IMG/VR virus record: IMGVR_UViG_2548876858_000013
Source of the DNA: a virus
Taxonomy: Duplodnaviria > Heunggongvirae > Uroviricota > Caudoviricetes
Length of the DNA: 32,484 nucleotides
Strand: one strand, 5' to 3'
The notes below the pieces were generated by a model. It made no database searches and was not told the origin of the DNA. It saw only the letters and a program-made list of their open reading frames with translations. A program made the position numbers and the translations under genes. This document shows, one piece after another, positions 1-26,181 of the stretch. Within the stretch, counting starts at the first letter, position 1, and each line of letters begins with the position of its first letter.

Positions 1-996
1 TTATGGACGCATTATGGACATTCCTGACACCGGGTTAAGAGTCACTGCATCTTGTAAGAAATCCGGTGCAAAGTGTGCGTAGGTCATAGTTTGCTGAATG
101 TTAGAATGACCCAGGATGCGCTGCAATGTGATTATGTTACCTCCATTCATTATAAAATGTGTGGCAAATGTATGCCTCAAAACATGCACTGCCTGTCCGT
201 CAGGTAAATCGGGTTTTACTTCCCTGAGAGCGTTGCGCACTTTGTAGTAACTGGCATTAAAAAGCCTGCCTGAATTTTTGGTCTTGATCCGTTTAATCAG
301 GTCCTGCGAAACGGGAATTGTCCTGCGCTTTCCGTTTTTAGTTTTCATAAACGTAACCATCTGGTTAATGATGTGTTCAGCTTTTAAATTAGACACTTCA
401 CTCCAGCGTCCACCAGTAGAAAGGCAGACCAGAGTCGCATTTAATTCATCACCATCGAGCATGGATAACAGCCGTGTAATCTCTTCACTGGACAAAAAAG
501 CCATTTCTGTAACAGCTTCACGTAATCGCTTAACCTCACGGAACGGGTTGTGAGAATGGTATTCACCGGCGTCAATTAACTTGGTGAACATCCCGCTCAT
601 TATTGCCAGATGCCGATTTACGCTGGCTGGTTTTAGACCATCGTTCATCATTACAACGCGATAATCAGTTATCGTTTTCTTTGTTAGCTGGTCAGCTCTG
701 GACACTCCCATTTCTGCAAATTTGGCGATTATTGTCGTCAAACGCCCCCGTTCAATATCTCCACGCTCATGTGATTTTCCGTGATATATCCACCATCTTC
801 CTAACAATTCTGTAAGAGTTCGGCGGTCGGCTGGCTTCTCCAGCCACTCTTTGTTGTGGTAGTTAACCAGTACATGACGTTCGAATGCTTGAGCTTCACC
901 TTTAGTTTTAAATTTCCGCCTGATACGTTTTCCATCTGCACCCTGCGGTCTGACGTCCACTTCATAACGACCATCATCGAGCTTTTTAATAGACAT
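1..996 (-). CDS. int: Phage integrase (tyrosine recombinase)
   Basis: 331-aa ORF at the prophage left end, leftward like P2 int; C-terminal region has tyrosine-recombinase-like boxes (HVLRHTFATHF ... LGHSNIQQTMTYAHF). Confidence 0.9.
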   Translation of the reverse strand: MSIKKLDDGRYEVDVRPQGADGKRIRRKFKTKGEAQAFERHVLVNYHNKEWLEKPADRRTLTELLGRWWIYHGKSHERGDIERGRLTTIIAKFAEMGVSRADQLTKKTITDYRVVMMNDGLKPASVNRHLAIMSGMFTKLIDAGEYHSHNPFREVKRLREAVTEMAFLSSEEITRLLSMLDGDELNATLVCLSTGGRWSEVSNLKAEHIINQMVTFMKTKNGKRRTIPVSQDLIKRIKTKNSGRLFNASYYKVRNALREVKPDLPDGQAVHVLRHTFATHFIMNGGNIITLQRILGHSNIQQTMTYAHFAPDFLQDAVTLNPVSGMSIMRP

Positions 997-1089
997 AAAG
1001 CCCTCCGATGACGCTGTTTACTTCTACTACTTGAAAATTAATGCAATTTTCTTTCGTACATTTACTGCACACATAAGCTGAATAAATCG

Positions 1090-1401
1090 TCAGCCAGTCT
1101 TTTGGTCTGAGTGGTGCAAGGTTGTTGAGTCTTGCCCAATGTGCGCGAGCGCCGGGGCTATTTGTCCGCCAGCGGGATCAGTTTCATCAAACATGAACCA
1201 GTCACGGTACTTGCGAAATCTTTCTGGCTTGAAAAATTTCATGCCTGCGTCAAAAGACATCTTTACTTTTCCCTGCTCATATCCAGCATAGGTGTTGTAG
1301 TTAATTCCAGTTAATTCAGCAACTTGCTTCCTTGTCATTCTTTCTGACTCCCGAATAAGTGCGAGTTTCTCTGCTTGAGATGTGATTTGTGTATTTGACA
1401 T
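1090..1401 (-). CDS. C: P2 C-type immunity repressor (HTH_XRE-like)
   Basis: Longest ORF is 1090..1449, but the probable start is the ATG at 1399-1401 (MSNTQITSQ...), giving about 103 aa. Helix-turn-helix segment RKQVAELTGINYNTYAGYEQG; divergent from the downstream cox-like gene as in the P2 immunity switch. Confidence 0.7.
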   Translation of the reverse strand: MSNTQITSQAEKLALIRESERMTRKQVAELTGINYNTYAGYEQGKVKMSFDAGMKFFKPERFRKYRDWFMFDETDPAGGQIAPALAHIGQDSTTLHHSDQKTG

Positions 1402-1505
1402 GAATTGTCGTATCTCGTAATTTATGTTGCATGCGACACGCCAGAACAACGCAGAGCGACTTCAAATAGCTCTGGTTGAATGGCACCAAAGTTGAGGATA
1501 TCAAA
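1402..1505. promoter_or_regulatory. Divergent early promoter/operator region (Pc/Pe-type switch), inferred
   Basis: 104-bp intergenic region between the divergently transcribed repressor and cox-like genes. Position-based inference only; operator repeats not resolved. Confidence 0.45.
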
Positions 1506-1862
1506 ATGAGTATTGGATCAGAAATGAATAACGATGTTGGAGAAAAAGTATCTGATCTCACAAAAAGTAAAAAATGTGACATCAAACTTGCAGCCGCACC
1601 GTCGGATTTGCTCTCGAAAGAGGGATTTGCTCTTTACATCGGTAAGACGCCTCGTGCTGTTGCTGAAATGGCGAAAGCAGGCAAGTTACCAGCCTTTTAT
1701 ATGACGGACCCATTAAAGCCGGGCGGTCATGCTGAGTTATGGATTAATCGCCGTGAGTGGGACAAGTACGCAGCCCAACTAGTTGATGAAGCTCCGACAG
1801 AATGGCATGACTGGAAAAATCGCATTAGTTACAGCAAATCAAGACATGGCCGTGCGGCTTAA
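1506..1862 (+). CDS. cox: Cox-like excision/regulatory protein
   Basis: ATG at 1506 preceded by GAGGAT (1494-1499); the ORF track start at 1476 is a TTG. Position and orientation match P2 cox. 118 aa is longer than the 91 aa I recall for P2 Cox, so the assignment is by synteny. Confidence 0.5.
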   Translation: MSIGSEMNNDVGEKVSDLTKSKKCDIKLAAAPSDLLSKEGFALYIGKTPRAVAEMAKAGKLPAFYMTDPLKPGGHAELWINRREWDKYAAQLVDEAPTEWHDWKNRISYSKSRHGRAA

Positions 1863-1872
1863 GGTGGAAAGG

Positions 1873-2043
1873 ATGAACGAGCCTCGTTGTATTGCTCAGT
1901 TATTGCGTAACGAAAGCCCCAGGGCGATTGACTTCACCATTACCCACGGTAAGGGGCGTAAGGGAATCATTATCCGCACTAAAAAACAGAGTCCGTTAAA
2001 AAAGGCTCTGACCTTTCTGAAAAGCCGGAGGGTATGGAAATGA
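1873..2043 (+). CDS. Small hypothetical early protein
   Basis: ATG at 1873 preceded by AAGGTGGAAAGG; 56 aa. The in-frame ORF from 1783 would overlap cox. Confidence 0.4.
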   Translation: MNEPRCIAQLLRNESPRAIDFTITHGKGRKGIIIRTKKQSPLKKALTFLKSRRVWK

Positions 2044-3363: not shown

Positions 3364-3587
3364 TGCCGGACAACGTAGATTTTATTCAGGAACAACAGGC
3401 TGAATTACTGGAGCGTCAGATTAACGCGGCAAGGGTAAAACATTGCGGTGCTTCTGCGCTGGTTTGCGAAGAGTGTGACGCGCCAATACCTGCTGCCCGT
3501 CGTGCGGCTTATCCGTCAGCCACGCGTTGTGTTTCCTGCCAGTCAGTCTTTGAAGCAAAAAACAAACATTACCGGAGAACGGCATGA
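3363..3587 (+). CDS. TraR/DksA-family C4 zinc-finger protein
   Basis: 74 aa with a four-cysteine motif CEECDAPIPAARR...TRCVSCQ typical of phage TraR/DksA-like proteins; start overlaps the upstream stop (TAATG). Confidence 0.8.
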   Translation: MPDNVDFIQEQQAELLERQINAARVKHCGASALVCEECDAPIPAARRAAYPSATRCVSCQSVFEAKNKHYRRTA

Positions 3588-3859
3588 GTATTCGTATTGA
3601 AATTGGCGAACGTTATGTCGTTACCAGTGACAGCTTTCAGTTTATTCTCCACGAGAAAAAGAGAGCTGAAAGCGGTAAAAACGCCGGTCAGGAATGGCTG
3701 GCGGTGGTTGGTTATTACCCGAAATTAAGCCAGCTCGTTTCCGGCCTGATGCATCACGATATTCTGACCGGAAGCGCAAAGTCTTTTGCTGATTTAAACG
3801 CGCAGGTTGAGCAACTCAGCAAGCGTTGTTCAGAGGCTTTTGGCTCATATGGCCGTTAA
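3584..3859 (+). CDS. Hypothetical early protein preceding gene A
   Basis: 91-aa ORF, start overlaps the upstream stop (ATGA), GGAG upstream. Confidence 0.55.
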   Translation: MSIRIEIGERYVVTSDSFQFILHEKKRAESGKNAGQEWLAVVGYYPKLSQLVSGLMHHDILTGSAKSFADLNAQVEQLSKRCSEAFGSYGR

Positions 3860-6125
3860 AGCCTCCGGGCGTTTTGTCCCTCCGTCAGCATTTGCCGCAG
3901 GCACCGGTAAGGCGTTTACCGGTGCTTATGCATGGAACGCGCCACGCGAGGCTGTCGGGCGCGAAAGACCCCTTACACGTGACGAGATGCGTCAGGTGCA
4001 AGGTGTTTTATCCACGATTAACCGCCTGCCTTACTTTTTGCGCTCGCTGTTTACTTCACGCTATGATTACATCCGGCGCAATAAAAGCCCGGTGCACGGG
4101 TTTTATTTCCTCACAGCCACTTTTCAGCGTCGTTTATGGCCGCGCATTGAGCGCGTGAATCAGCGCCATGAAATGAACACCGACGCGTCGTTACTGTTTC
4201 TGGCAGAGCGTGACCACTATGCGCGCCTGCCGGGAATGAATGACAAGGAGCTGAAAAAATTTGCCGCCCGTATCTCATCGCAGCTTTTCATGATGTATGA
4301 GGAACTCTGCGATGCCTGGGTGGATGCCCATGGCGAAAAAGAATCGCTGTTTACGGATGAGGCGCAGGCTCACCTGTATGGTCATGTTGCTGGCGCTGCA
4401 CGTGTTTTCAATATTTCCCCGCTCTACTGGAAAAAATACCGTAAAGGACAGATGACCACGAGGCAGGCATATTCTGCCATTGCCCGCCTGTTTAACGATG
4501 AGTGGTGGACTCATCAGCTTAAAGGCCAGCGTATGCGCTGGCATGAGGCGTTACTGATTGCTGTCGGGGAGGTCAATAAAGACCGTTCTCCTTATGCCAG
4601 TAAACATGCCATTCGTGATGTGCGTGCACGCCGCCAGGCAAATCTGGAATTTCTTAAATCGTGTGACCTTGAAAACAGGGAAACCGGCGAGCGCATCGAC
4701 CTTATCAGTAAGGTGATGGGCAGTATTTCTAATCCTGAAATTCGCCGGATGGAGCTGATGAACACCATTGCCGGTATTGAGCGTTACGCCGCAGCAGAGG
4801 GTGATGTGGGGATGTTTATCACGCTGACCGCGCCGTCAAAGTATCACCCGACACGTCAGGTCGGAAAAGGCGAAAGTAAAACCGTCCAGCTAAATCACGG
4901 CTGGAACGATGAGGCATTTAATCCAAAGGATGCGCAGCGTTATCTCTGCCATATCTGGAGCCTGATGCGCACGGCATTCAAGGATAATGATTTACAGGTC
5001 TACGGTTTGCGTGTCGTCGAGCCACACCACGACGGAACGCCGCACTGGCATATGATGCTTTTTTGTAATCCGCGCCAGCGTAACCAGATTATCGAAATCA
5101 TGCGTCGCTATGCGCTCAAAGAGGATGGCGACGAAAGAGGAGCCGCGCGAAACCGTTTTCAGGCAAAACACCTTAATCGGGGCGGTGCTGCGGGGTATAT
5201 CGCGAAATACATCTCAAAAAACATCGACGGCTATGCACTGGATGGTCAGCTCGATAACGATACCGGCAGGCCGCTGAAAGATACTGCTGCGGCTGTTACC
5301 GCATGGGCGTCAACGTGGCGCATTCCGCAATTTAAAACGGTTGGTCTGCCGACAATGGGGGCTTACCGTGAACTACGCAAATTGCCTCGCGGTGTCAGCA
5401 TTGCTGATGAGTTTGACGAGCGCGTCGAGGCTGCACGCGCCGCTGCAGACAGTGGTGATTTTGCGTTGTATATCAGCGCGCAGGGCGGGGCAAATGTCCC
5501 GCGCGATTGTCAGACTGTCAGGGTCGCCCGTAGCCCGTCGGATGACGTTAACGAGTACGAGGAAGAAGTCGAGAGAGTGGTCGGCATTTACGCGCCGCAT
5601 CTCGGCGCGCGTCATATTCATATCACCAGAACGACGGACTGGCGCATTGTGCCGAAAGTTCCGGTCGTTGAGCCTTTGACTTTAAAAAGCGGCATCGCCG
5701 CGCCTCGGAGTCCTGTCAATAACTGTGGAAAGCTCACCGGTGGTGATACTTCGTTACCGGCTCCCACACCTTCTGAGCACGCCGCAGCAGTGCTTAATCT
5801 GGTTGATGACGGTGTTATTGAATGGAATGAACCGGAGGTCGTGAGGGCGCTCAGGGGCGCATTAAAACACGACCTGCGAACGCCAAACCGTCAGCAAAGA
5901 AACGGAAGCCCGTTAAAACCACATGAAATTGCACCATCGGCCAGACTGACCCGGTCGGAAAGAATGCAAATTACCCGTATCCGCGTTGACCTTGCTCAGA
6001 ACGGTATCAGGCCGCAGCGATGGGAGCTTGAGGCGCTGGCGCGTGGCGCGACCGTAAATTATTACGGGAAATCTTTCAATTATCAGGTCGCTGATGAGTG
6101 GCCTGGATTTTTGTTACCCATTTGA
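3849..6125 (+). CDS. A: Rolling-circle replication initiation endonuclease (P2 gpA-like)
   Basis: Long ORF 3807..6125; start may be the ATG at 3849 (MAVKASG...) or 3807. Contains an HUH-like motif (PHWHMMLF, about 5038-5060) and a paired-tyrosine motif (GYIAKYISK, about 5195-5220) characteristic of phiX174/P2-type Rep proteins; P2 gene A position. Confidence 0.85.
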   Translation: MAVKASGRFVPPSAFAAGTGKAFTGAYAWNAPREAVGRERPLTRDEMRQVQGVLSTINRLPYFLRSLFTSRYDYIRRNKSPVHGFYFLTATFQRRLWPRIERVNQRHEMNTDASLLFLAERDHYARLPGMNDKELKKFAARISSQLFMMYEELCDAWVDAHGEKESLFTDEAQAHLYGHVAGAARVFNISPLYWKKYRKGQMTTRQAYSAIARLFNDEWWTHQLKGQRMRWHEALLIAVGEVNKDRSPYASKHAIRDVRARRQANLEFLKSCDLENRETGERIDLISKVMGSISNPEIRRMELMNTIAGIERYAAAEGDVGMFITLTAPSKYHPTRQVGKGESKTVQLNHGWNDEAFNPKDAQRYLCHIWSLMRTAFKDNDLQVYGLRVVEPHHDGTPHWHMMLFCNPRQRNQIIEIMRRYALKEDGDERGAARNRFQAKHLNRGGAAGYIAKYISKNIDGYALDGQLDNDTGRPLKDTAAAVTAWASTWRIPQFKTVGLPTMGAYRELRKLPRGVSIADEFDERVEAARAAADSGDFALYISAQGGANVPRDCQTVRVARSPSDDVNEYEEEVERVVGIYAPHLGARHIHITRTTDWRIVPKVPVVEPLTLKSGIAAPRSPVNNCGKLTGGDTSLPAPTPSEHAAAVLNLVDDGVIEWNEPEVVRALRGALKHDLRTPNRQQRNGSPLKPHEIAPSARLTRSERMQITRIRVDLAQNGIRPQRWELEALARGATVNYYGKSFNYQVADEWPGFLLPI

Positions 6126-6385
6126 GTAAAAATGCAGCGTGATTTTATATGCCTTTGAATGGATTATGCGAAGCGCCTCTAAGGCAGATGAGGAGCAATA
6201 GCATGCTGAAGTAGAAGGCTAAATTGTATTGAATCGCTAGCATGTAATTTAAGGCAGCTATTTGATTCGAGTCATAAAAGAGCATCTATTTCGGCTAATA
6301 AAACCATTGCGAGTGACCTTTTGTCGAAGCATAATTCATCTCGAGCGAAGTCTTGCTAGTCTTTCATCGGAATGATGACAGGCGC

Positions 6386-6415
6386 AAAAAAACCACCCTG
6401 GCAGGTGGTTTTTTT
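6386..6415. terminator. Bidirectional intrinsic terminator-like hairpin
   Basis: AAAAAAACCACC / loop CTGGCA / GGTGGTTTTTTT: an A-tract and T-tract flanking a GC stem; 13 nt downstream of the minus-strand small ORF stop and about 260 nt downstream of gene A. Confidence 0.6.
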
Positions 6416-6427
6416 GTTTGAAGCATA

Positions 6428-6541
6428 CTAAAGAATAATACTTACATGGATATTACTGACGTTTACTGACAAACCACTTGGACTACCATATGGATAGCCA
6501 AAGAGGGCCAGAACGAGAATGCAGTAATAGCACTTCTTCAT
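6428..6541 (-). CDS. Small hydrophobic protein (37 aa), candidate small membrane peptide
   Basis: Minus-strand ORF MKKCYYCILVLALFGYPYGSPSGLSVNVSNIHVSIIL, translated by hand. Near-consensus RBS GGAGGAGAT immediately upstream of the ATG and a hairpin terminator just downstream. Below the 60-aa cut-off of the ORF track. Confidence 0.4.
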   Translation of the reverse strand: MKKCYYCILVLALFGYPYGSPSGLSVNVSNIHVSIIL

Positions 6542-7112
6542 ATCTCCTCCTGTAAGCAGAGGGCAATTTCCGCCGATATATGCGCTTCTGAGGCGGAGTT
6601 ACTATTTAGCGAAGTCTTGCCCTGAAATAATGCTCTGTTTAAACGCAAAGTGATCTGGCATATCACCGAACAGAGAGCCTGAACAACACAACATATAGTA
6701 TGTCGTTGTTTCTGGTTGCATTTTATGTTGTGTAATACTGGTTTTGCATCAAGGATGTTTGAGCTTTTTTTGATATAGCTCAAAGTAAAAAGCAGGGACT
6801 ACGGATGATAAGGTATTGAAAGCAATGTAAATTTTTTAAAGTTATTGGTGGCTAAAAAATGCACGGTTTCAATATGGCGGACTTAAATAAGCAATTAAAA
6901 AAGTCATAAATATCACTAAAATCATGGTGTTACGTTTTTTTGTGGGAGCTGCGGTGACGCTTAAGTTGATTTGTCATTAAATAAGCCGTGCATGCAACAA
7001 GTGAATGTTTTTGCATGCGTCGGGGATGCCCGTTCCAGCTGCTCGCGGTCAGAGCTGGTGCGGATCCATAGTATCTATGCAACTGCATTAAAACCGCCAC
7101 ATGAAGCGGGCG

Positions 7113-7131
7113 GGCGAGGCGGGGAAAGCAC
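7113..7131. other. cos site (P2-type 19-nt cohesive end GGCGAGGCGGGGAAAGCAC)
   Basis: Exact 19-mer that I recall as the P2 cohesive end and start of the P2 genome, followed here by TGCGCGCT as I recall for P2; sits in a GC-rich patch within otherwise AT-rich DNA between A and Q. Confidence 0.65.
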
Positions 7132-7355
7132 TGCGCGCTCCATTAACGACCATTACATAATACTATTAGCCTATGAATCGAGTCATGAGATGTTATCTTT
7201 ACGATTCAGGCGAGTGCTTTCGTTACGATGAGTTAGTTTAAGCACACTATCTGCACAAAAAATAATCTGTTGAAGCGATTCATCATTCCTAACGCTCTAG
7301 AGTCTTAAATAAAAATATGTAAAATGCGTAAAATTTTCTGAATTATGGATCAGCT

Positions 7356-8438
7356 ATGCTTGGAACTTCATCACAAAGAGCTATTTCAGTACAACATGTT
7401 GATTTAAATGTAAAGTGTTGGGTCGTTAGACCTGGGATTAAGTATAGATATTTTGCAGACTTCCTTGAACGCAATATGGTTGCTACTGCTCACTTGGATA
7501 GGTTAAGTCCAGATCAAATTGACTTTAATGATGAAATTAACCATGAAAATATTAATCAAAAGGTTGATGGGTTAGATACTATTGGTTCAAGAAATATTCA
7601 TACCCAAATTGAAAATTTCCTCATAGATATGCAGGTCGGTGATGTTGTTTTCACTTTGTCAGGTGATATGGTTGTTCCTGGAGTTATTGCATCTTCCGCG
7701 TATTTTGAGCGTGAATGTTTAGGTAATAATGAAGGGTTTCATGTAAGACGTAGAGTCACATGGGGAGAGCCAGTTCGCAGACGAGAGATTCCATTAGCTC
7801 TTCAGAAATCGTTTACTGCATACCAGACCGTATTCTCTTTGGGCGGGAAGTCAGAAGAAGTACTGCATTGGTTAATGTCATTCTTTATAACGGATAATAT
7901 TTTCTGTACTAGCTTAAGAGTCGAGCAAGCAGAAGCCATTCGGCATCATACTCTTAAGCAGCTGGCTGAGCTGGTCGATAGAGTGCAGGTACTTGCGCTA
8001 TTAATTGGCGAAGAGTTTGATGGCGAGTATACAAACGAAGTTGTTCAGTTTGAGATGGAAAGACTTTCTAATAATGGAGAGTTATCCTTGACTGCTCAAC
8101 AAATGTTGATGTCTCCGGGGGATGTTTGGCTACAATTTAAAACAAATAATAGAAAGGCCGGAATTGCGTTTATGTTAATTATGGGGGCCATTTTTAATCA
8201 TGATGTAGCCTTCGCTTCAACGGTTGATAATCGTATAAGTGAGGAACTTCGATCTCATATTGAAGGGAAAAAAGAGGTTGCAATGGATGGATTAAACTTT
8301 GATAGAGTTTCTCAAGTTCTAGAGTTGCGTTTAAAAAGACAAAATAGAGGCTTTGTTTCTGCTCGTCCAACGAACCGTGAGATCGGACAGGGGATCAATT
8401 TCCCTGAAGATGGTGATGCGAGGCATGCGAGTGACTAA
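7356..8438 (+). CDS. Hypothetical cargo protein, 360 aa, soluble; first gene of a two-gene operon
   Basis: Long ORF in AT-rich DNA; weak RBS (GGAT), so the true start could be downstream. No nucleotidyltransferase GS..DxD motif and no clear HEPN or PD-(D/E)xK motif seen by eye. Confidence 0.7.
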   Translation: MLGTSSQRAISVQHVDLNVKCWVVRPGIKYRYFADFLERNMVATAHLDRLSPDQIDFNDEINHENINQKVDGLDTIGSRNIHTQIENFLIDMQVGDVVFTLSGDMVVPGVIASSAYFERECLGNNEGFHVRRRVTWGEPVRRREIPLALQKSFTAYQTVFSLGGKSEEVLHWLMSFFITDNIFCTSLRVEQAEAIRHHTLKQLAELVDRVQVLALLIGEEFDGEYTNEVVQFEMERLSNNGELSLTAQQMLMSPGDVWLQFKTNNRKAGIAFMLIMGAIFNHDVAFASTVDNRISEELRSHIEGKKEVAMDGLNFDRVSQVLELRLKRQNRGFVSARPTNREIGQGINFPEDGDARHASD

Positions 8439-8440
8439 CT

Positions 8441-9130
8441 ATGAACTTTGAATTTGTAAAAGAACACTGGCTGATAATAGGCATGCTATTCATAGCATGT
8501 CTATTATTAATTTTAAAATTCAAAGATATTTACAGAACACACGATCAGTTTAATAACGTCGTGATGTCATTGTGCGCTGTTTTGACACTTGTGTGGGGAG
8601 GATATACTTTTGATGTTTTGCACCAAAGGGATAAGGCAGAAGCTGATCTTATAGAGTTAAGAAATAGAATTAGAAATACAGAATCGACATTTTTTAATGT
8701 TGACGTTAATGTTGTTAAAATCGATGATGTGTTTTATATAAAGCCTATTGTGACTATTAGGAATAACAGTAATGAGCGAATTTATGTGAAGCTTAATAAC
8801 AAGTCCCTTGCTGTTAGTCGTGTTTTATCGGCCGGTGCAAAGCAAGTCGCTACGGAAGTTTTTTATCCAAATTATTATGAGGAGTTGGCTGTTCTTAATG
8901 AAGAAAGTAGCTCGCAAGGAAAAGCTAAAAATATACCTTTATATGACATATCCGTTCCTATCTCTGCTGAAAGACGCTTGAACTATCTTGTTTCGACAAA
9001 AGAAAAAGGAATGTATTATGTAACATTTAGTGCTGAGGCAATGAACGAAGATGGCTCGCCTGTTTCTAAATACATAAATGGGAAAAAATCTATATGGTTT
9101 TCTTCTTCATATATTGAAGTTAAAGATTGA
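8441..9130 (+). CDS. Hypothetical cargo membrane protein, 229 aa, two N-terminal TM helices plus a beta-rich-looking soluble domain
   Basis: ATG 2 nt after the upstream stop (TAACTATG). Hydrophobic segments WLIIGMLFIACLLLIL and VVMSLCAVLTLVWGGYTF; the remainder is rich in alternating hydrophobic/polar stretches. AT-rich. Confidence 0.7.
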   Translation: MNFEFVKEHWLIIGMLFIACLLLILKFKDIYRTHDQFNNVVMSLCAVLTLVWGGYTFDVLHQRDKAEADLIELRNRIRNTESTFFNVDVNVVKIDDVFYIKPIVTIRNNSNERIYVKLNNKSLAVSRVLSAGAKQVATEVFYPNYYEELAVLNEESSSQGKAKNIPLYDISVPISAERRLNYLVSTKEKGMYYVTFSAEAMNEDGSPVSKYINGKKSIWFSSSYIEVKD

Positions 9131-9225
9131 ATTTCTATTAAACCATATAGTAATTGAAGGTGTTGGGGGTTAATCTTGCCTGGATTGCATAGAATCACGC
9201 CGCCTGGAGACGGCGCTAAGGGTAC

Positions 9226-10254
9226 TTAATTAGATTCTAGACTGTAATCTTTAAAGCGGATGACCTCCTGACCGAGCCAGCCGTTTATCTCGCGGATCCT
9301 GTCCTGTAACGGGATAAGCTCATTGCGGACAAAGACCTTTGCCACTTTCTCAATATCACCCAGCGACCCGACGTTCTCCGGCTTGCCGCCCATCAACTGA
9401 AAGGGGATGCGGTGCGCGTCCAGCAGGTCAGCGGCGCTGGCTTTTTTGATATTAAAAAAATCGTCCTTCGTTGCCACTTCACTGAGCGGGATAATTTTAA
9501 TGCCGTCGGCTTTCCCCTGTGGGGCATAGAGAAACAGATTTTTAAAGTTATTGCGGCCTTTCGACTTAACCATGTTTTCGCGAAGCATTTCGATATCGTT
9601 GCGATCCTGCACGGCATCGGTGACGTACATGATGTATCCGGCATGTGCGCCATTTTCGTAATACTTGCGGCGGAACAGCGTGGCCGACTCATTCAGCCAG
9701 GCAGAGTTAAGGGCGCTGAGATATTCCGGCAGGCCGTACAGCTCCTGATTAATATCCGGCTCCAGCAGGTGAAACACGGAGCCGGGCGCGAAGGCTGTCG
9801 GCTCGTTGAAGGACGGCACCCACCAGTAAACATCCTCTTCCACGCCACGGCGGGTATATTTTGCCGGTGAGGTTTCCAGTCTGATGACCTTACCGGTGGT
9901 GCTGTAACGCTTTTCCAGAAATGCATTACCGAACACCAGAAAATCCAGCACAAAGCGGCTGAAATCCTGCTGGGACAGCCACGGATGCGGGATAAATGTC
10001 GAGGCCAGAATATTGCGTTTGACGTAAATCGGGGAGCTGTGATGCACGGCAGCACGCAGGCTTTTTGCCAGACCGGTAAAGCTGATTGGTGGCTCATACC
10101 ATCTGCCGTTACTGATGCACTCGACATAATCCAGAATGTCACGGCGGTCGAGTACCGGCACAGGCTCGCCAAAGGTGAATGCCTCCATTTTCGGGGCGCT
10201 GGCGGTCATTTTTTTTGCCGCAGGTTGCGGTGTTTTCCCTTTTTTCTTGCTCAT
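9226..10254 (-). CDS. Q: Portal protein (P2 gpQ-like)
   Basis: 342-aa ORF, leftward, next to the terminase gene; matches P2 Q position and approximate length. Confidence 0.9.
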   Translation of the reverse strand: MSKKKGKTPQPAAKKMTASAPKMEAFTFGEPVPVLDRRDILDYVECISNGRWYEPPISFTGLAKSLRAAVHHSSPIYVKRNILASTFIPHPWLSQQDFSRFVLDFLVFGNAFLEKRYSTTGKVIRLETSPAKYTRRGVEEDVYWWVPSFNEPTAFAPGSVFHLLEPDINQELYGLPEYLSALNSAWLNESATLFRRKYYENGAHAGYIMYVTDAVQDRNDIEMLRENMVKSKGRNNFKNLFLYAPQGKADGIKIIPLSEVATKDDFFNIKKASAADLLDAHRIPFQLMGGKPENVGSLGDIEKVAKVFVRNELIPLQDRIREINGWLGQEVIRFKDYSLESN

Positions 10255-12026
10255 CAGTAAAACTCCAGAATGGTGGATGTCAGCGGGGTGCTGATACCGG
10301 CGGTGAGTGGCTCATTTAACAGGGCGTGCATGGTCGCCCAGGCGAGGTCGGCGTGGCTGGCTTCCTCGCTGCGGCTGGCCTCATAGGTGGCGCTGCGTCC
10401 GCTGCTGGTCATGGTCTTGCGGATAGCCATAAACGAGCTGGTGATGTCGGTGGCGCTGACGTCATATTCCAGACAGCCACGGCGGATGACGTCTTTTGCC
10501 TTGAGCACCATTGCGGTTTTCATTTCCGGCGTGTAGCGGATGTCGCGCGCGGCGGGATAGAACGAGCGCACGAGCTGGAACACGCCGACACCGAGGCCGG
10601 TGGCATCAATACCGATGTATTCGACGTTATATTTTTCGGTGAGTTTGCGGATAGATTCCGCCTGGGTGGCAAAGTCCATGCCTTTCCACTGGTGACGCTC
10701 AAGTATTCTGAATTTGCCACCGGCCACCACCGGCGGTGCCAGTACCACGCATCCGGCGCTGTCGCCACGGTGTGACGGGTCGTAACCAATCCATACCGGA
10801 CGGGAGCCGAACGGATTGGCGGCAAACGGCGCATAGTCTTCCCATTCTTCCAGCGTGTCGACCATGCAGCGTTGCAGCTCCTCGAACGGGAACACCGACG
10901 CCTTGTCGTCAACAAATTCACACATGAACAGGTTTTTAAAATCGTCGGCGCTGTTTTCACGTTTGAGCTGCTCAATGTCGAACAGTGTGCAGCCACCTTT
11001 CAGGGCGTCCTCAATGGTGACAATCTGCCGCCACTGGCCGTCCGCACAGAGAAGACCTCCGGCAAGTGCGTTATGACTGACGTCGATTTCCACGCGTTCA
11101 GCGGCGCTGGCGCGTCCCCGGTTAAACAGTTCACCGGACCAGAACGGATAGGCGTCGTGCGCCAGCGTGGACGGGGTGGAGAAATAGGTCGAGCGCAGGT
11201 GACTCTGTGAGGCCATACCTGATGCCACCTTACGCAGTACCTGAAAATTCGGGATCCAGAAAATCTCGTCGACGTACAGGTCGCCGTTATGGCTCTGCGC
11301 GGTGTTGGAGTTGGTGCCGAGAAAAATCAGTTTTGCGCCGTTATTGCCCAGGACAATCGGGTCACCGGTCAGGTCAACGTCAACCAGCCGGGCAAAGGCG
11401 ATGATGTATTCGCGGAACACATACGCCTGTGTTTTACTGGCCGACAGAAAAATCTGGTTATGACCGGTTTTCAGGGCGCGCAGCAGCGCCTCGCGGGAAA
11501 AATAAAACGTCGCGCCAATCTGGCGGGATTTCAGGATATCGCGGATGCGGTGCTCAAGCCCGGCGCGATACCAGTGCAACTGATATTCGAAAGACTGCTC
11601 AAAGAAAATCTGCTCCAGCTTTTCGATGGCTTCGTCACTGAAAAAATTCTTTTTCGGTTTGCGACGCCCGCCTTTGTTGCGGTTAGCGACGTTCGGATTA
11701 AGGTCTGCCTCGTTGCCGGTCTGGCTGTAGCGGTTGACCCGTGCCAGTCGTTCAATCTGGCGTCCCAGCAGGTCAATTTCCTTGAAGTCACCGCCGGTTT
11801 TCTGCGGTTTGATGATGAGCCGGGTCAGCCGCGCTTCCAGACTCATTTCGACACGGCTGATGGGGGCAACGCTGTCCCAGCCGTCGCGCTGTTTCCAGCT
11901 CTGCACCGTCGGGCGTTTCATCTGCAACATGGCGGCAATCTGCGGCACGGAAAACCCCTGCCAGTACAGCAGCGCCGCCTGACGACGCGGGTCGTGTAAA
12001 AGGGTGGTGTCTGTGGTGATGGTCAT
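10254..12026 (-). CDS. P: Terminase large (ATPase) subunit (P2 gpP-like)
   Basis: Start taken as the ATG at 12024-12026 with GAGG five nt upstream, giving 590 aa (recalled P2 gpP length); the ORF track start at 12056 is a TTG. Stop overlaps the Q start by 1 nt. Confidence 0.9.
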   Translation of the reverse strand: MTITTDTTLLHDPRRQAALLYWQGFSVPQIAAMLQMKRPTVQSWKQRDGWDSVAPISRVEMSLEARLTRLIIKPQKTGGDFKEIDLLGRQIERLARVNRYSQTGNEADLNPNVANRNKGGRRKPKKNFFSDEAIEKLEQIFFEQSFEYQLHWYRAGLEHRIRDILKSRQIGATFYFSREALLRALKTGHNQIFLSASKTQAYVFREYIIAFARLVDVDLTGDPIVLGNNGAKLIFLGTNSNTAQSHNGDLYVDEIFWIPNFQVLRKVASGMASQSHLRSTYFSTPSTLAHDAYPFWSGELFNRGRASAAERVEIDVSHNALAGGLLCADGQWRQIVTIEDALKGGCTLFDIEQLKRENSADDFKNLFMCEFVDDKASVFPFEELQRCMVDTLEEWEDYAPFAANPFGSRPVWIGYDPSHRGDSAGCVVLAPPVVAGGKFRILERHQWKGMDFATQAESIRKLTEKYNVEYIGIDATGLGVGVFQLVRSFYPAARDIRYTPEMKTAMVLKAKDVIRRGCLEYDVSATDITSSFMAIRKTMTSSGRSATYEASRSEEASHADLAWATMHALLNEPLTAGISTPLTSTILEFY

Positions 12027-12199
12027 GAATACCTCGCCGTGATGAATACACGGCAAGGCTACTGAGTCGCGCCCTGCGATTCGCTAAGGTGCTGTTGTGT
12101 CAGTGATAAGCCATCCGGGACTGATGGCGGAGGATGCGCATCGTCGGGAAACTGATGCCGACATGTGAATCCTCTAATCACTATTCAGGACTCCTGACA
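12027..12199. promoter_or_regulatory. Divergent late promoter region for the P-Q and O-N-M-L operons, inferred by position
   Basis: Intergenic region between divergently transcribed P and O, as in P2. I searched for an exact TGT-N12-ACA activator site and did not find one. Confidence 0.35.
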
Positions 12200-14189: not shown

Positions 14190-14933
14190 ATGATGAGTCC
14201 CGCACAGCGCCACATGATGCGGGTCTCGGCAGCGATGACCGCGCAGCGGGAAGCCGCCCCGCTGCGACATGCAACTGTCTATGAGCAGATGCTGGTTAAG
14301 CTCGCCGCAGACCAGCGCACACTGAAAGCGATTTATTCAAAAGAGCTTAAGGCCGCGAAAAAACGCGAACTGCTGCCGTTCTGGTTGCCGTGGGTGAACG
14401 GCGTGCTGGAGCAGGGCAAAGGTGCACAGGATGACATTCTGATGACGGTCATGCTGTGGCGTCTGGATACCGGCGATATTGCCGGTGCGCTGGAGATTGC
14501 CCGTTATGCCCTGAAGTACGGTCTGACCATGCCGGGTAAACACCGCCGTACCCCGCCGTACATGTTCACCGAGGAGGTGGCGCTTGCGGCCATGCGCGCT
14601 CACGCTGCCGGTGAGTCTGTGGATACCCGCCTGCTGACGGACACCCTTGAACTGACCGCCACGGCTGACATGCCTGATGAAGTGCGCGCAAAGCTGCACA
14701 AAATCACCGGTCTGTTTCTGCGTGACGCTGGTGATGCCGTAGGGGCGCTGGCGCACCTGCAACGCGCGACACAGCTCGACTGTCAGGCAGGCGTCAAAAA
14801 AGAGATTGAACGACTGGAGCGGGAGCTGAAACCGAAGCCGGAGCCGCAGCCAAAAGCGGCCACCCGCGCCCCGCGTAAGACCCGGAGCGTGACACCGGCA
14901 AAACGTGGACGCCCGAAAAAGAAAGCCAGTTAA
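14190..14933 (+). CDS. M: Terminase small/endonuclease subunit (P2 gpM-like)
   Basis: 247 aa, the recalled P2 gpM length; basic C-terminal tail (KRGRPKKKAS). Confidence 0.85.
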   Translation: MMSPAQRHMMRVSAAMTAQREAAPLRHATVYEQMLVKLAADQRTLKAIYSKELKAAKKRELLPFWLPWVNGVLEQGKGAQDDILMTVMLWRLDTGDIAGALEIARYALKYGLTMPGKHRRTPPYMFTEEVALAAMRAHAAGESVDTRLLTDTLELTATADMPDEVRAKLHKITGLFLRDAGDAVGALAHLQRATQLDCQAGVKKEIERLERELKPKPEPQPKAATRAPRKTRSVTPAKRGRPKKKAS

Positions 14934-16541: not shown

Positions 16542-16793
16542 ATGAAGAAATTATCCCTTTCACTGATGCTGAACGTGTCGCTGGCGCTGATGCTGGCACT
16601 GTCCCTGATTTACCCGCAGAGCGTGGCCGTCAGTTTTGTCGCCGCCTGGGCGATTCTGGCGACGTTTATCTCGCTGGTCGCTGCCGGGTGGATTTTTACC
16701 GCGCTGATTTATCTCGTGGCATCGGTGTTCTTCCGGCTGATACGTACGGCCTGCTGTCAGCGTTTTGAGGGGCGGGAACCATGTCAAAGCTGA
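16542..16793 (+). CDS. lysA: LysA-like small membrane protein (lysis accessory)
   Basis: 83 aa, mostly hydrophobic, at the P2 lysA position; shorter than I recall for P2 LysA, so the call is tentative. Confidence 0.6.
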   Translation: MKKLSLSLMLNVSLALMLALSLIYPQSVAVSFVAAWAILATFISLVAAGWIFTALIYLVASVFFRLIRTACCQRFEGREPCQS

Positions 16794-21592: not shown

Positions 21593-23722
21593 ATGAGCAC
21601 AAAATTCAGAACCGTTATCACCACTGCCGGTGCAGCAAAGCTGGCAGCGGCAACCGCGCCGGGAGGGCGGAAGGTCAACATTACCACGATGGCCGTCGGG
21701 GATGGCGGTGGTAAATTGCCTGTCCCGGATGCCGGACAGACCGGGCTTATCCATGAAGTCTGGCGACATACGCTGAACAAAATCAGCCAGGACAAACGAA
21801 ACAGTAATTATATTATCGCAGAGCTGGTTATTCCGCCGGAGGTGGGTGGTTTCTGGATGCGTGAGCTTGGCCTGTACGATGATGCGGGAACGTTAATTGC
21901 CGTGGCGAACATGGCCGAAAGTTATAAACCTGCCCTTGCCGAAGGCTCAGGGCGTTCGCAGACCTGCCGCATGGTCATCATCGTCAGCAGTGTGGCCTCA
22001 GTGGTGCTGACCATTGACACCACAACGGTGATGGCGACGCAGGATTACGTTGATGACAAAATTGCAGAGCATGAACAGTCACGACGTCACCCGGACGCCT
22101 CGCTGACCGCAAAAGGTTTTACTCAGTTAAGCAATGCGACCAACAGCACGTCTGAAACACTGGCCGCAACGCCGAAAGCGGTAAAGGCCGCCTATGACCT
22201 GGCTAACGGGAAATATACTGCGCAGGATGCCACCACAGCGCGAAAAGGTCTTGTCCAGCTCAGTAGTGCCACCAACAGCACGTCTGAAACGCTCGCCGCA
22301 ACACCAAAAGCGGTAAAGGCCGCGTATGACCTTGCTAACGGGAAATACACTGCACAGGACGCCACCACAGCGCGAAAAGGTCTTGTCCAGCTCAGTAGCG
22401 TCACCAACAGCGATTCTGAAATGCTTGCGGCAACGCCAAAGGCGGTTAAGACAGCGTATGACCTTGCTAATGGGAAATACACTGCACAGGATGCCACCAC
22501 GGCGCGGAAAGGTCTTGTTCAGCTCAGTAGCGCCACCAACAGCGATTCTGAAACGCTGGCTGCAACGCCAAAGGCGGTTAAGACAGCGTATGACCTTGCT
22601 AACGGGAAATACACTGCACAGGACGCCACCACAGCGAGAAAAGGCCTTGTCCAGCTCAGTAGCGCCACCAACAGCGATTCTGATACGCTGGCCGCAACAC
22701 CAAAAGCGGTGAGGTCTGCCTATGACAATGCTGAGAAACGTCTTCAGAAAGATCAGAACGGCGCGGATATTCCTGATAAAAGATTATTCCTGCGCAATAT
22801 TGGAGCAACAAATTCAACAACCATGTCTTTTAGTGGTGGTACAGGATGGTTCAGGCTGGCAACTGTAACCATGCCACAGGCCAGTTCCGTGGTTTACATA
22901 AGTCTGATTGGTGGTGCCGGGTATAATGTTAACTCCCCTATGCAGGCTGGTATATCTGAACTTGTTCTTCGTGCGGGAAATGGAAATCCAAAAGGTCTTA
23001 CTGGTGCGTTATGGCGACGGACCTCGGTTGGATTTACTAATTTTGCATGGGTGAATACATCCGGTGATACCTATGATGTTTATGTTGAAATAGGTAATTA
23101 CGCCACAGGTGTTAATATTCAGTGGGATTATACCAGTAACGCCAGCGTAACGATTCATACATCACCAACTTATACAGCGAATAAACCAACAGGCCTGACA
23201 GATGGAACTGTATATGTAATTTACAGTTCGCACATTAAACCGACTGCTGCTGATGTTGGGGCGTTATCATTATCTGGAGGTCAATTGAATGGTGCACTGG
23301 GCATCGGTACATCCAGTGCTCTTGGCGGTAACTCGATTGTTTTGGGTGATAATGACACGGGCTTTAAACAAAATGGCGACGGTAATCTGGATGTTTATGC
23401 TAATAACGTCCATGTTATGCGCTTTGTCTCCGGTAGCATTCAAAGTAATAAAACCATAAATATTACGGGGCGTGTTAATCCCTCGGATTACGGTAACTTT
23501 GATTCCCGCTATGTCCGGGATATCCGGCTTGGTGGTGCTGCCACATACAAACCTGCGAACAATGGCATGACATGGACACATCAGGCACCATCCGGGTGTG
23601 TATATTCCGGCATTATTGTTCAGGATACCGGCTCAAACTCTGCCGATAACATTGGTGGCGTATATTACAGGCCGGTGCAGAAATACATTAACGGGACATG
23701 GTATAACGTGGTGCAGGTATAA
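21593..23722 (+). CDS. H: Tail fiber protein (P2 gpH-like) with internal tandem repeats
   Basis: 709 aa after the baseplate genes; conserved N-terminal region, a central block of 44-aa tandem repeats, and a more AT-rich C-terminal region. Confidence 0.9.
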   Translation: MSTKFRTVITTAGAAKLAAATAPGGRKVNITTMAVGDGGGKLPVPDAGQTGLIHEVWRHTLNKISQDKRNSNYIIAELVIPPEVGGFWMRELGLYDDAGTLIAVANMAESYKPALAEGSGRSQTCRMVIIVSSVASVVLTIDTTTVMATQDYVDDKIAEHEQSRRHPDASLTAKGFTQLSNATNSTSETLAATPKAVKAAYDLANGKYTAQDATTARKGLVQLSSATNSTSETLAATPKAVKAAYDLANGKYTAQDATTARKGLVQLSSVTNSDSEMLAATPKAVKTAYDLANGKYTAQDATTARKGLVQLSSATNSDSETLAATPKAVKTAYDLANGKYTAQDATTARKGLVQLSSATNSDSDTLAATPKAVRSAYDNAEKRLQKDQNGADIPDKRLFLRNIGATNSTTMSFSGGTGWFRLATVTMPQASSVVYISLIGGAGYNVNSPMQAGISELVLRAGNGNPKGLTGALWRRTSVGFTNFAWVNTSGDTYDVYVEIGNYATGVNIQWDYTSNASVTIHTSPTYTANKPTGLTDGTVYVIYSSHIKPTAADVGALSLSGGQLNGALGIGTSSALGGNSIVLGDNDTGFKQNGDGNLDVYANNVHVMRFVSGSIQSNKTINITGRVNPSDYGNFDSRYVRDIRLGGAATYKPANNGMTWTHQAPSGCVYSGIIVQDTGSNSADNIGGVYYRPVQKYINGTWYNVVQV
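22113..22722 (+). repeat. In-frame tandem repeat inside the tail fiber gene, about 4.6 copies of a 132-bp (44-aa) unit
   Basis: Repeated peptide KGLVQLSSATNS(T/D)SETLAATPKAVKAAYDLANGKYTAQDATTAR; copies begin near 22113, 22245, 22377, 22509 and 22641 with a few substitutions. Confidence 0.85.
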
Positions 23723-23725
23723 TTT

Positions 23726-24253
23726 ATGCAGCATTTAAAAAATATTACGGCGGGTAATCCAAAAACGGTTGAACAATATCAATTAACAAAGGACTTTGAT
23801 GTTGTCTGGTTTTTTTCAGAAGATGGTAAGAACTGGTACGAAGAACAAAAGTATTTTGCTGATGACACGATAAAAATAGCGTACGACAAAGATAATATCA
23901 TCCGCTATGTGGAAAAGGATGTGACAGCTATCAGACCAGATGGATTAAGTGTTGTTGAAGTGGCGGATATTACTGCTAACCGACGGGCGGACATTTCAGG
24001 GAACTGGATGTTTAAAGACGGCACAGTGATTAAACGAATTTATACGGCGGAGGAATTGCAGCAGCAGGCAGAAAATCGGAAAGCCAGACTTCTTACAGAT
24101 GCTGAATACGTGATTTTGCCGTTGGAGCGCGCGGTCAGGCTGAACATAGCAACAGAGGAGGAGCGCACACGGTTGGAGGCTTGGGAACGCTACAGCGTTC
24201 TGGTCAGTCGTGTGGATCCTGCGAATCCTGAATGGCCGGAAATGCCGCAATAA
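23726..24253 (+). CDS. G: Tail fiber assembly protein (P2 gpG-like)
   Basis: 175 aa, recalled P2 gpG length, directly after H. Confidence 0.85.
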
Positions 24254-24310
24254 GTTCTATGAGCTCTGGTGTGAGCTGACATATCTATGGCAAAGAGTAA
24301 AGCCTAATCT

Positions 24311-24342
24311 GACAGTCCGCTCTGTGCCATGAGCGGACTGTC
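24311..24342. terminator. Perfect 12-bp inverted repeat stem-loop downstream of G (possible terminator)
   Basis: GACAGTCCGCTC / 8-nt loop / GAGCGGACTGTC; no clear U-tract, so terminator efficiency is uncertain. Confidence 0.4.
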
Positions 24343-24537
24343 AATAAACAGATTTACGTGTAAATCTTGAAGCTATACATATTTACTTTCAATGATAAAT
24401 AAAAGAACCACCCCAAAATCACTGAAAGTATATTTTAACTAACCACCTGCAACTACTAACATTAATTTCACTCAACCTCAAAGAGTCGTAATTAAAATGA
24501 TATGTATAGCAATTTGCCTCGATACGAATCATATGAA

Positions 24538-25236
24538 TTATATTTTTCCATGCTTTTCACCGTCAAATCGAATCATGCTAGGATCAAGAAAATAAATCAA
24601 ATCAATTAACGCATGTTGTATTCTGATTAGCCTTTCTTTATAAGGCTCGATATTTTTTGTCATATTTATCACTTCATTGTTTAAATCTAAAAAAAATGGT
24701 TCATTGACAAAGCAATTTTCCTTTGTGAAACCGCCGTAACCTATGCAATCAAATCCAGCATCTGTTGATATCAACATCTTTTCCGCAATAGCTCTCTGCT
24801 CTCCTATGAAAAACATAAAATACTGACCAAAGGCGTCTGTTTGGATTAATGAGTTAATATTGTTCTGTAATCTAATAAACTCCCTCATTTTTTTATTTTT
24901 TTCTAGACTAAGGTATTGAATGTCTATGCGGGCAGCTTCTGTCCATGCAAAGAACTGGGAAAAAAGAAAAACCGTATTTTTGATAACATAATCTTGTTGG
25001 CGCTTACTCCCATTATGATAAAACTCTTCAATAAACCCTAATTCTAATATGTTATAAATGCGGCTTTGTAAGTCTGAAGCTGAGCGAATTAACGGTTCAA
25101 TATAGTACTGATGTTTTCTCCTTACATCCAGTGTTTCATTGAGCTTGTTTATTCTATTCTGATTATAGGTAGATATAGCAATAGAGATTATAGATATTGC
25201 ACCACCAATAAGGCTTGAAATTAATGCCACACTCAT
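24538..25236 (-). CDS. Hypothetical cargo protein, 232 aa, N-terminal TM helix plus soluble domain
   Basis: RBS AAGGA seven nt upstream of the ATG at 25234-25236; very AT-rich; N-terminal hydrophobic segment VALISSLIGGAISIISIAISTY; at the G-FI variable locus. Confidence 0.7.
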   Translation of the reverse strand: MSVALISSLIGGAISIISIAISTYNQNRINKLNETLDVRRKHQYYIEPLIRSASDLQSRIYNILELGFIEEFYHNGSKRQQDYVIKNTVFLFSQFFAWTEAARIDIQYLSLEKNKKMREFIRLQNNINSLIQTDAFGQYFMFFIGEQRAIAEKMLISTDAGFDCIGYGGFTKENCFVNEPFFLDLNNEVINMTKNIEPYKERLIRIQHALIDLIYFLDPSMIRFDGEKHGKI

Positions 25237-26058
25237 CTAAAAGTCCTTTGATTTTCTTGGTTAACAAAATGACATGGTTTTATTTAATGTCGCAGCAACT
25301 TAATAATACACCATGATATGATTATTATGGTGTGATTTTTCGCATCTGTAATCCATTACAAACAGATGCAAGGTATAACTTGTCTATTTTTAGTCAGAAA
25401 ATTCGTAAACATCCAAAGTAGCCTCATCAAACTCTTAAAATTCTATACATTTGAGTGTAAAGATTTTAAATTCAGCTGCATGGTATCGACTCATGTTTAT
25501 TATATCTTTTATTTGTAATTAAAGGTTGCATTATTTTCGATAGTAAATCATCGCAAGATTGAAATATGATTTCACTTGATGCAATGTTTCATGTGGCCCA
25601 GCGATTTGAGTTACACCCAGCTGTACGGGTAATATAAATCAAATTGATGAACTTTTGATACACTCCTCTCTCCTCATTACTTTATGTTTTTGCTCTCAAA
25701 AATATCTTGCTCTCTGAAAATTATTCTTTAAGTTCAAAGTCGAGGACTGCATGAGTGTTAGATACAAAGCTAATATGTTGAAATGTTTTTCATCTCCCCA
25801 TAACGGCATTATTATCTAAAATATTTACACAAATATAGGATTACCCCTTTAACGTAAACTAGGTATCAAGTTAACACCATTATATATATCATAAACATGA
25901 TATTTTGTATATTTTTATCATTTAGCCTTGATTGTACAGGGCGTACTCTCAACGAAGTAGGGAAAGTCTGTTTTTCGCTCAAAACTGGCTGTCAGATTTG
26001 ATAGCATTTGGGCTATGTAAATTGTCAGTTGGAGAATGAGGGAGTAAAAATCAGGACA

Positions 26059-26085
26059 GGCGGGCGAATTGCCCGCCTTTTCTTT
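26059..26085 (+). terminator. Intrinsic terminator-like hairpin upstream of FI
   Basis: GGCGGGC / loop GAATT / GCCCGCC followed directly by TTTTCTTT on the plus strand. Confidence 0.5.
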
Positions 26086-26181
26086 ATCTGTTGTTTCATC
26101 CACTGACCAGCCAGGTCAAATAGCGTCTCATGTACTACCCAACGGAAAATAGTTGCACCCATTAACCACGGAGTTAAACGG
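26086..26181 (+). promoter_or_regulatory. Probable late promoter region upstream of FI, inferred by position
   Basis: Region between the terminator and the FI start. One-mismatch candidate to the recalled TGT-N12-ACA late-promoter site (TGT at 26092-26094, CCA twelve nt later); not conclusive. Confidence 0.3.

Follow-up and report, generated by a model that had tools for sequence, protein, structure and literature searches.

A P2-type cos site with a two-gene operon on its portal-gene side in a P2-like prophage

Accessory DNA next to cos in P2-related elements

Phage P2 has the same 19-nt cohesive end, in the same orientation to the portal gene Q and the terminase genes P and M, as the locus described here, which lies in a 32,484-nt stretch of viral DNA (IMG/VR record IMGVR_UViG_2548876858_000013; the window in what follows). 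The two differ in where the cargo resides. In P2, 167 bp separate cos from the Q stop codon and the cargo genes orf91, tin and old are found on the A side, whereas the window has an empty A side of 987 bp and 2094 bp on the Q side.

An accessory site between cos and the portal-gene terminator goes back to Dodd and Egan 1996 (Virology 219:115), as cited in PMC5694545, PMC6868368 and PMC7826664, and the same three papers point to Nakayama 1999 as a further precedent. Retrons Ec67 and Ec86 of 186-related prophages, as well as retron-Ec48 of phage pro147, are cassettes that take the place of the DNA between cos and the terminator or 3' end of the portal gene, with this same junction after the cos core. 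Their cargo is a retron, whereas that of the window encodes a DUF8426 protein and a predicted membrane-protein partner. In pro147 (NC_028896; L135 in our sample) the exact 19-mer at 3530–3548 is followed by a 2.26-kb retron-Ec48 cassette, with a retron-Ec48-type reverse transcriptase and a membrane effector at 3874–5768 on the plus strand, and then by the portal gene, the stop codon of which lies at 5811. Mitomycin C induces this phage, which plaques on four E. coli strains and has been imaged as contractile-tailed (PMC5285337).

The psu-cos-gop/beta/cII-int hotspot of P4 (Rousset et al. 2022) likewise holds its cargo directly after the 19-mer, on the left-end side, as in the window. In the P4 reference, gop starts at nt 247 and is followed by beta, both reading away from cos; the operon of the window starts at nt 244. 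P4 differs in being a satellite without Q or terminase genes, which is packaged by the P2 terminase (PMC9122126), and it has no DNA in common with the cassette of the window. In phiCTX (ctx) and phiRSY1/phiRSA1 (ORF1-4), which are viable phages, conversion genes are located between cosL and the gpQ homologue (PMC5694545), a position explicitly termed a hotspot in that paper. Unlike the window, these phages belong to Pseudomonas and Ralstonia hosts and have diverged cohesive ends.

A gpA-gpQ hotspot "adjacent to the cos site" was described by Rousset et al. 2022, and a 2026 NAR survey (PMC13586616) again treats gpA-gpQ as one hotspot; as far as searched, the main text of neither paper states on which side of cos each system lies. 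The cargo of the window is placed between A (3807–6125) and Q (9226–10254), that is, within the gpA-gpQ hotspot, and the supplementary table of Rousset et al. 2022 contains WP_024234794 or WP_064556667, paired with WP_024234795, under the entry "hypothetical + hypothetical". The layout has been known for the family since 1996, and the gene pair is already catalogued.

The cos core and its prophage context

A tblastn search with 41 P2 proteins identified the window as a P2-like prophage in the usual permuted order: int (minus strand), C, cox, B, A (plus), cos, Q (minus), P (minus), O, N, M, L, X, Y, K, lysA/B, R, S, V, W, J, I, H, G, FI, FII, E, T, U and D. Matches were obtained for 36 of these proteins, most of them full length and mostly at 94–100% identity; partial matches were those of H (first 251 of 669 residues) and lysB (without its first 22). 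Fun(Z), orf91, tin and old had no match in the window, and ogr would fall past its end. The cognate terminase (gpP, gpM) and the portal gpQ adjoin cos in the P2-type gene order, this terminase being the enzyme that cuts the site in P2. Judged from its gene content, the prophage looks intact within the window, with ogr and the att sites outside. The features relevant to the analysis are as follows.

1–996, minus strand: int (tblastn)
3807–6125, plus strand: replication gene A, 98% identical to P2 gpA; left border of the A-Q hotspot
6126–7074, no strand: A-side spacer, about 950 bp, 40% GC (ORF list, Rfam, RefSeq relatives)
7075–7139, plus strand: conserved cos core, about −38 to +26 around the 19-mer (column conservation; comparison of P2, 186 and P4)
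7113–7131, plus strand: cohesive-end 19-mer (identity with P2 cosL/cosR; 17/19 with 186)
7140–9249, plus strand: Q-side cassette, 2.1 kb, with leader, operon, GC hairpin and recoded Q 3' end (short-word blastn)
7356–8438, plus strand: gene 1, 360 aa, PF28530/DUF8426, with a predicted N-terminal EVE/YTH/ASCH-type (PUA-like) fold
8441–9130, plus strand: gene 2, conserved alongside gene 1; 229 aa, the N-terminal part with two hydrophobic segments (translation)
9143–9162, minus strand: 8-bp GC-rich hairpin GCGCCGUC/GGCGGCGU (RNA fold of 9131–9228, both strands)
9226–10254, minus strand: portal gene Q, 98% identical to P2 gpQ; last approximately nine codons recoded
10254–12056, minus strand: large terminase subunit gene P, 99.7% identical to P2 gpP
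14190–14933, plus strand: small terminase subunit gene M, 98% identical to P2 gpM

Three parts of the window (1–1900, 16542–16790 and 21593–24253) are mosaic relative to P2. The products of int, C and cox share only 53%, 48% and 35% identity with those of P2, indicating a different integration/immunity module, and lysA is 48% identical. The alignment of H over its first 251 residues only, together with 74% identity for G, suggests that the host-range module has been swapped. The Z/fun locus (24254–26180, between G and FI), a second accessory locus of the prophage, is devoid of fun(Z) and contains an ORF of 232 aa (24538–25236, minus strand), which PADLOC matches weakly to RTasTM (E 1e-6).

The 19-mer GGCGAGGCGGGGAAAGCAC was found as a single copy in a scan of the whole window, at 7113–7131 on the plus strand. 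Allowing up to three mismatches revealed no second site in the window, and 100 dinucleotide-preserving shuffles yielded none. Directly 3' of it, at 7132–7139, lies TGCGCGCT. The GC content reaches 74% over 7094–7139, compared with 40% for 6126–7074, 37% for 7140–9225 and 50.5% for the whole window. The 19-mer is identical in all 19 positions to the annotated cosL (1–19) and cosR (33575–33593) of P2 (NC_001895) and in 17 of 19 to the annotated cos (1–19) of phage 186 (NC_001317). A previous sequence-only reading of this DNA had noted the exact 19-mer and TGCGCGCT in a GC-rich patch and had taken the 19-mer for the P2 cohesive end; both statements hold, and the comparison with the P2 and 186 cos regions that it had proposed as a check shows that the shared core is kept as well.

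In an ungapped comparison, the block common to the window, circularised P2, 186 and P4 extends from approximately −38 to +26, counted from the first base of the 19-mer. Its extent was also followed in a sample of 120 IMG/VR loci with the exact 19-mer (L007–L126), P4-like satellites included, where column conservation is 0.9–1.0 from about −35 to +25 and drops to approximately 0.6 beyond. The core of the window departs from the consensus of these 120 loci at one position, which reads as part of the loop of the upstream hairpin. Relative to P2, the 29 bp 5' of the 19-mer contain two mismatches and the 8 bp of TGCGCGCT on its 3' side are identical. A 55-bp core of the P2, 186 and P4 cos sites is attributed to Ziermann and Calendar 1990, as cited in PMC5694545; no data on the minimal cos site came from PMC9942202. 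An 86-aa ORF (6971–7231 of the window) that spans the cos core is almost certainly spurious; the public phage record ON470601 has a similar cos-spanning ORF annotated as "hypothetical protein" (L004 3685–3882).

The two flanks of cos and the operon

On the A side, the spacer 6126–7074 contains no credible gene and no Rfam match, and nothing is annotated there in the RefSeq relatives. The distance from A to cos varies between 767 and 5679 bp in 68 loci, with a median of 2.7 kb, and the 987 bp of the window are near the minimum. The A-side spacer represents the classical tin/old cargo side in a nearly empty form. Its sequence is at least 99% identical across many E. coli P2-like prophages, and it could be regulatory DNA, a small RNA or the remains of a gene.

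On the Q side, short-word blastn matched the P2 cos region to the window at 7084–7139 and then only at 9250–9293. The homology stops at 7139, 8 bp past the cohesive end, and restarts at 9250, approximately 25 nt inside the 3' end of Q, so that the cassette stands in place of P2 nt 28–216. Foreign DNA replaces the segment from the cos core to the 3' end of the portal gene, and the P2 spacer (nt 28–186) is absent elsewhere in the window by the same search. The C-terminus of Q is altered accordingly: it reads ...KDYSLESN* in the window and, in our reading of the P2 sequence, ...KNYSLDTDND* in P2. No direct or inverted repeats and no transposon or IS signatures were found at the cassette edges. 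The sequence-only reading had placed tin and old between A and cos in P2, and in NC_001895 they are indeed located between A and cosR. It had rightly put the P2 Q stop close to cos, although the distance of 100–150 bp that it gave was slightly low (167 bp, with the Q CDS starting at 187). Its estimate of about 2.1 kb between cos and Q in the window agrees with the 2094 bp that we measured from the last base of the 19-mer to the Q stop. Its placement of the operon on the Q side, where, unlike tin/old of P2, it would lie at the left end once the genome is packaged, is supported by the operon coordinates (7356–9130) in the orientation of the P2 map.

In this position the operon would begin 244 nt from the left end, with its transcription directed from cos towards Q. 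When 6100–9300 was scanned for promoters and terminators, no plus-strand promoter was called between cos and the operon (7140–7355). The only terminator-like call in 6100–9300 was the hairpin of the cos core, on the minus strand, and shuffled sequence gave at least as many hits. The Rfam scan of 6100–9300 gave no match at the gathering score, the hits below threshold (RNAI, Phe leader, mir-363) being due to chance. The folded hairpin at 9143–9162 lies 64–83 nt downstream of the Q stop (9226–9228) on the Q strand; no T-run follows it, and it was not among the calls of the terminator scan. The tQ terminator of P2 (160–181), in contrast, is only about 6 nt from the Q stop. Given this difference in distance and the missing T-run, the hairpin may at most be a loose counterpart of tQ.

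The DUF8426 family search returned 48 clusters. The named entries, all labelled hypothetical, stem from Enterobacterales and Pseudomonas. A structural model of gene 1, built from 23 homologues (pLDDT 83, pTM 0.80), predicts a PUA-like reader domain in the N-terminal ~190 residues, and Foldseek agrees with this match; W22, R25, H46 and D48 are invariant residues of this putative reader. In gene 2, two hydrophobic segments, read by eye as predicted membrane helices, precede a soluble domain; no significant or informative family match was obtained for this protein. Pfam, NCBIfam and PHROGs gave nothing informative for either protein of the operon, and PADLOC reported a weak, partial match to the unvalidated candidate PDC-S02.

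The operon is present in 7 of 5426 complete E. coli genomes. Genes 1 and 2 co-occur in Citrobacter, in Serratia and in most IMG/VR loci with homologues. A P2-like prophage of Citrobacter freundii has the operon, at 74% amino-acid identity, next to a cos with one mismatch, on the Q side, and carries a different gene on the A side. Six IMG/VR contigs (L136–L140 and L145, L136 being the contig of L024) have it on the Q side of cos. In a Serratia chromosome the pair adjoins icd, with no P2 context within the 6-kb flanks examined. Homologues of the cassette at 67–72% identity occupy the A side in three 186-like contigs, L141 (5968–9887), L142 (3376–6530) and L143, in which another gene is found on the Q side; the idea that the DUF8426 cassette always keeps to the Q side was rejected on the basis of these placements. 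In L150 and L151 (~6001–7768; 11.5-kb contig), more distant homologues of gene 1 (41%) are encoded close to a P4 alpha-like primase. The operon behaves as a mobile two-gene cassette, the side of which relative to cos is not fixed. As a separate observation, the cassette moves between both flanks of cos, and also between helper-like and satellite-like elements.

By analogy with the other occupants of the site, the operon is most likely a lysogenic-conversion or anti-phage module. Hints of a role in defence come from the weak PDC-S02 match, the EVE/YTH-like fold, the predicted two-helix partner and the organisation as a mobile two-gene cassette. Based on the predicted fold and membrane segments, a sensor of modified nucleic acid acting with a membrane effector is a plausible function for the pair.

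Frequency, origin and significance of Q-side cargo

The 120 IMG/VR loci were oriented on the 19-mer, and Q, A and P4 markers were placed by tblastn. The distance from cos to Q was 166–182 bp in 84 of the 92 P2-like loci with a visible Q (exactly 178 bp, by our own measure, in 68 of them), and it was kept even where Q was only 52–80% identical. This constancy of length suggests a constraint from which the cargo-bearing phages have escaped. The conserved spacer could aid packaging efficiency or terminate the P-Q transcript. The remaining 8 of the 92 loci have 0.9–3.2 kb between cos and Q, and three more truncated loci extend for at least 0.9 kb after cos and end before Q is reached. In every long case the foreign DNA starts 6–8 bp past the 19-mer.

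The eight Q-side cargoes (seven in addition to that of the window) show no detectable DNA similarity to one another, have a GC content of 33–37% and are mostly plus-strand two-gene operons. PADLOC calls among them comprise DRT2 (E 5e-205), an Avs5-like SIR2 protein, PD-T4-4 A and B, a retron type IV reverse transcriptase with a 2TM effector, and an AAA ATPase pair. For the PD-T4-4 and ATPase cassettes, no isolated phage carrier was found in the phage collection. Both flanks may be filled at once. In pro147 (L135 1779–5768) a 514-aa reverse transcriptase is encoded on the A side and the retron-Ec48-type reverse transcriptase and effector on the Q side, while in E. coli Ec-U9-2 (L005) the DUF8426 operon on the Q side is accompanied by an annotated reverse-transcriptase gene and an HTH gene on the A side.

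Among the P4-like loci, psu lies 167–216 bp before cos (mostly 168 or 177) in the 20 with a psu match, and variable cargo of 0.9–3.6 kb follows the 19-mer in all 21 that hold both psu and int. As a layout, the Q-side position recurs in a minority of P2-like phages, whereas in P4-like satellites it is the rule. The layout of the window differs from that of P2 itself and is not unusual for the family. Since the P4-like loci carry variable cargo after the 19-mer, and since P4 and P2 have nothing in common beyond +26, this comparison shows that the P2 terminase tolerates unrelated sequence from +27 onward.

We consider it very probable that 7075–7139 is the functional cos of an apparently intact P2-like prophage that carries a Q-side cassette. 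After excision and replication, the gpM/gpP terminase would introduce staggered nicks at both ends of the 19-mer, and the resulting linear genome would have its left end starting at 7113 and its right end finishing at 7131. We infer cleavage at this site from the intact core, the near-identical terminase genes and the precedent of pro147. Only the ~60-bp core would matter for recognition, and both flanks would therefore be free for accessory cargo. The cassette most probably arrived by homologous recombination, with the cos core and Q as arms, and its donor would have been another P2-like phage, because it brought along a diverged but homologous 3' end of Q. On this sequence evidence, an exchange between two P2-like genomes is the simplest route.

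A different origin can be imagined, in which the cassette was captured from a P4-like satellite through the shared cos core or the cohesive ends, in an exchange between helper and satellite. The left junction, 6–8 bp past the 19-mer, coincides with the point at which P4 and P2 diverge, the starts of P4 gop-beta (nt 247) and of the operon (nt 244) are at nearly the same distance and both read away from cos, and the 41% DUF8426 homologues adjoin a P4 alpha-like primase (L150, L151); Rousset et al. 2022, moreover, speculate on recombination mediated by cos ends. The right junction, however, is situated inside Q, in a diverged homologous 3' end, and P4 has no Q. No sampled P4-like locus shares DNA with any Q-side cargo, and the protein similarity is marginal. 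For these reasons satellite capture is the less likely origin, and the cassette family is in addition found on the A side of three 186-like contigs, so that its side is not fixed. We give this origin only a very slight chance. The broader proposal that P2-like phages share their Q-side cargo with P4-like loci was rejected on the same absence of shared DNA and marginal protein similarity.

It is also conceivable, albeit quite unlikely, that the cos core is a relic in a cryptic, packaging-defective prophage, in which the loss of the spacer and of tQ impairs the terminase or the expression of P and Q; the operon would then be merely chromosomal cargo that never resides at a virion end. The near-constant spacer of 166–182 bp in 84 of 92 P2-like loci, even with Q at 52–80% identity, would fit such a constraint, as the window has no spacer and only a T-less hairpin 64–83 nt from the Q stop, and the operon is rare (7 of 5426 complete E. 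coli genomes). Nevertheless, every gene for structure, lysis, replication or terminase within the window is full length, and most are 94–100% identical to their P2 counterparts. Phage pro147, which shares this junction and has no spacer either, can be induced and forms plaques, and P4, equally without the spacer, is packaged by the P2 terminase (PMC9122126). The persistence of the layout across genera, at 74% protein identity, argues in the same direction. These points favour a functional cos with a Q-side cassette over a relic.

A more far-reaching proposal combines two parts: that the cos flanks are distinct cargo bays, with Q-side cassettes exchanged between helpers and satellites, and, separately, that the DUF8426 pair is an abortive-infection sensor. 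We regard this combination as improbable. Within it, Q-side cassettes could be exchanged through recombination at the shared core or at the free cohesive ends, and a position 244 nt from the genome end could confer a distinct timing of entry and expression. The DUF8426 protein (EVE/YTH-like reader) and the predicted membrane protein could form an abortive-infection system that senses modified phage nucleic acid. In every sampled case, P4-like satellites have their cargo on this Q side.

The published gpA-gpQ hotspot is made up of two cargo bays split by a core of approximately 60 bp, with the Q-side bay used by 8 of 92 P2-like elements. Separating the A side from the Q side is a useful small refinement for annotation, rather than a discovery. 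The cos site fixes the expected ends of the packaged genome, and the operon would be the leading gene block at the left end, in the manner of gop/beta in P4 and ctx in phiCTX.
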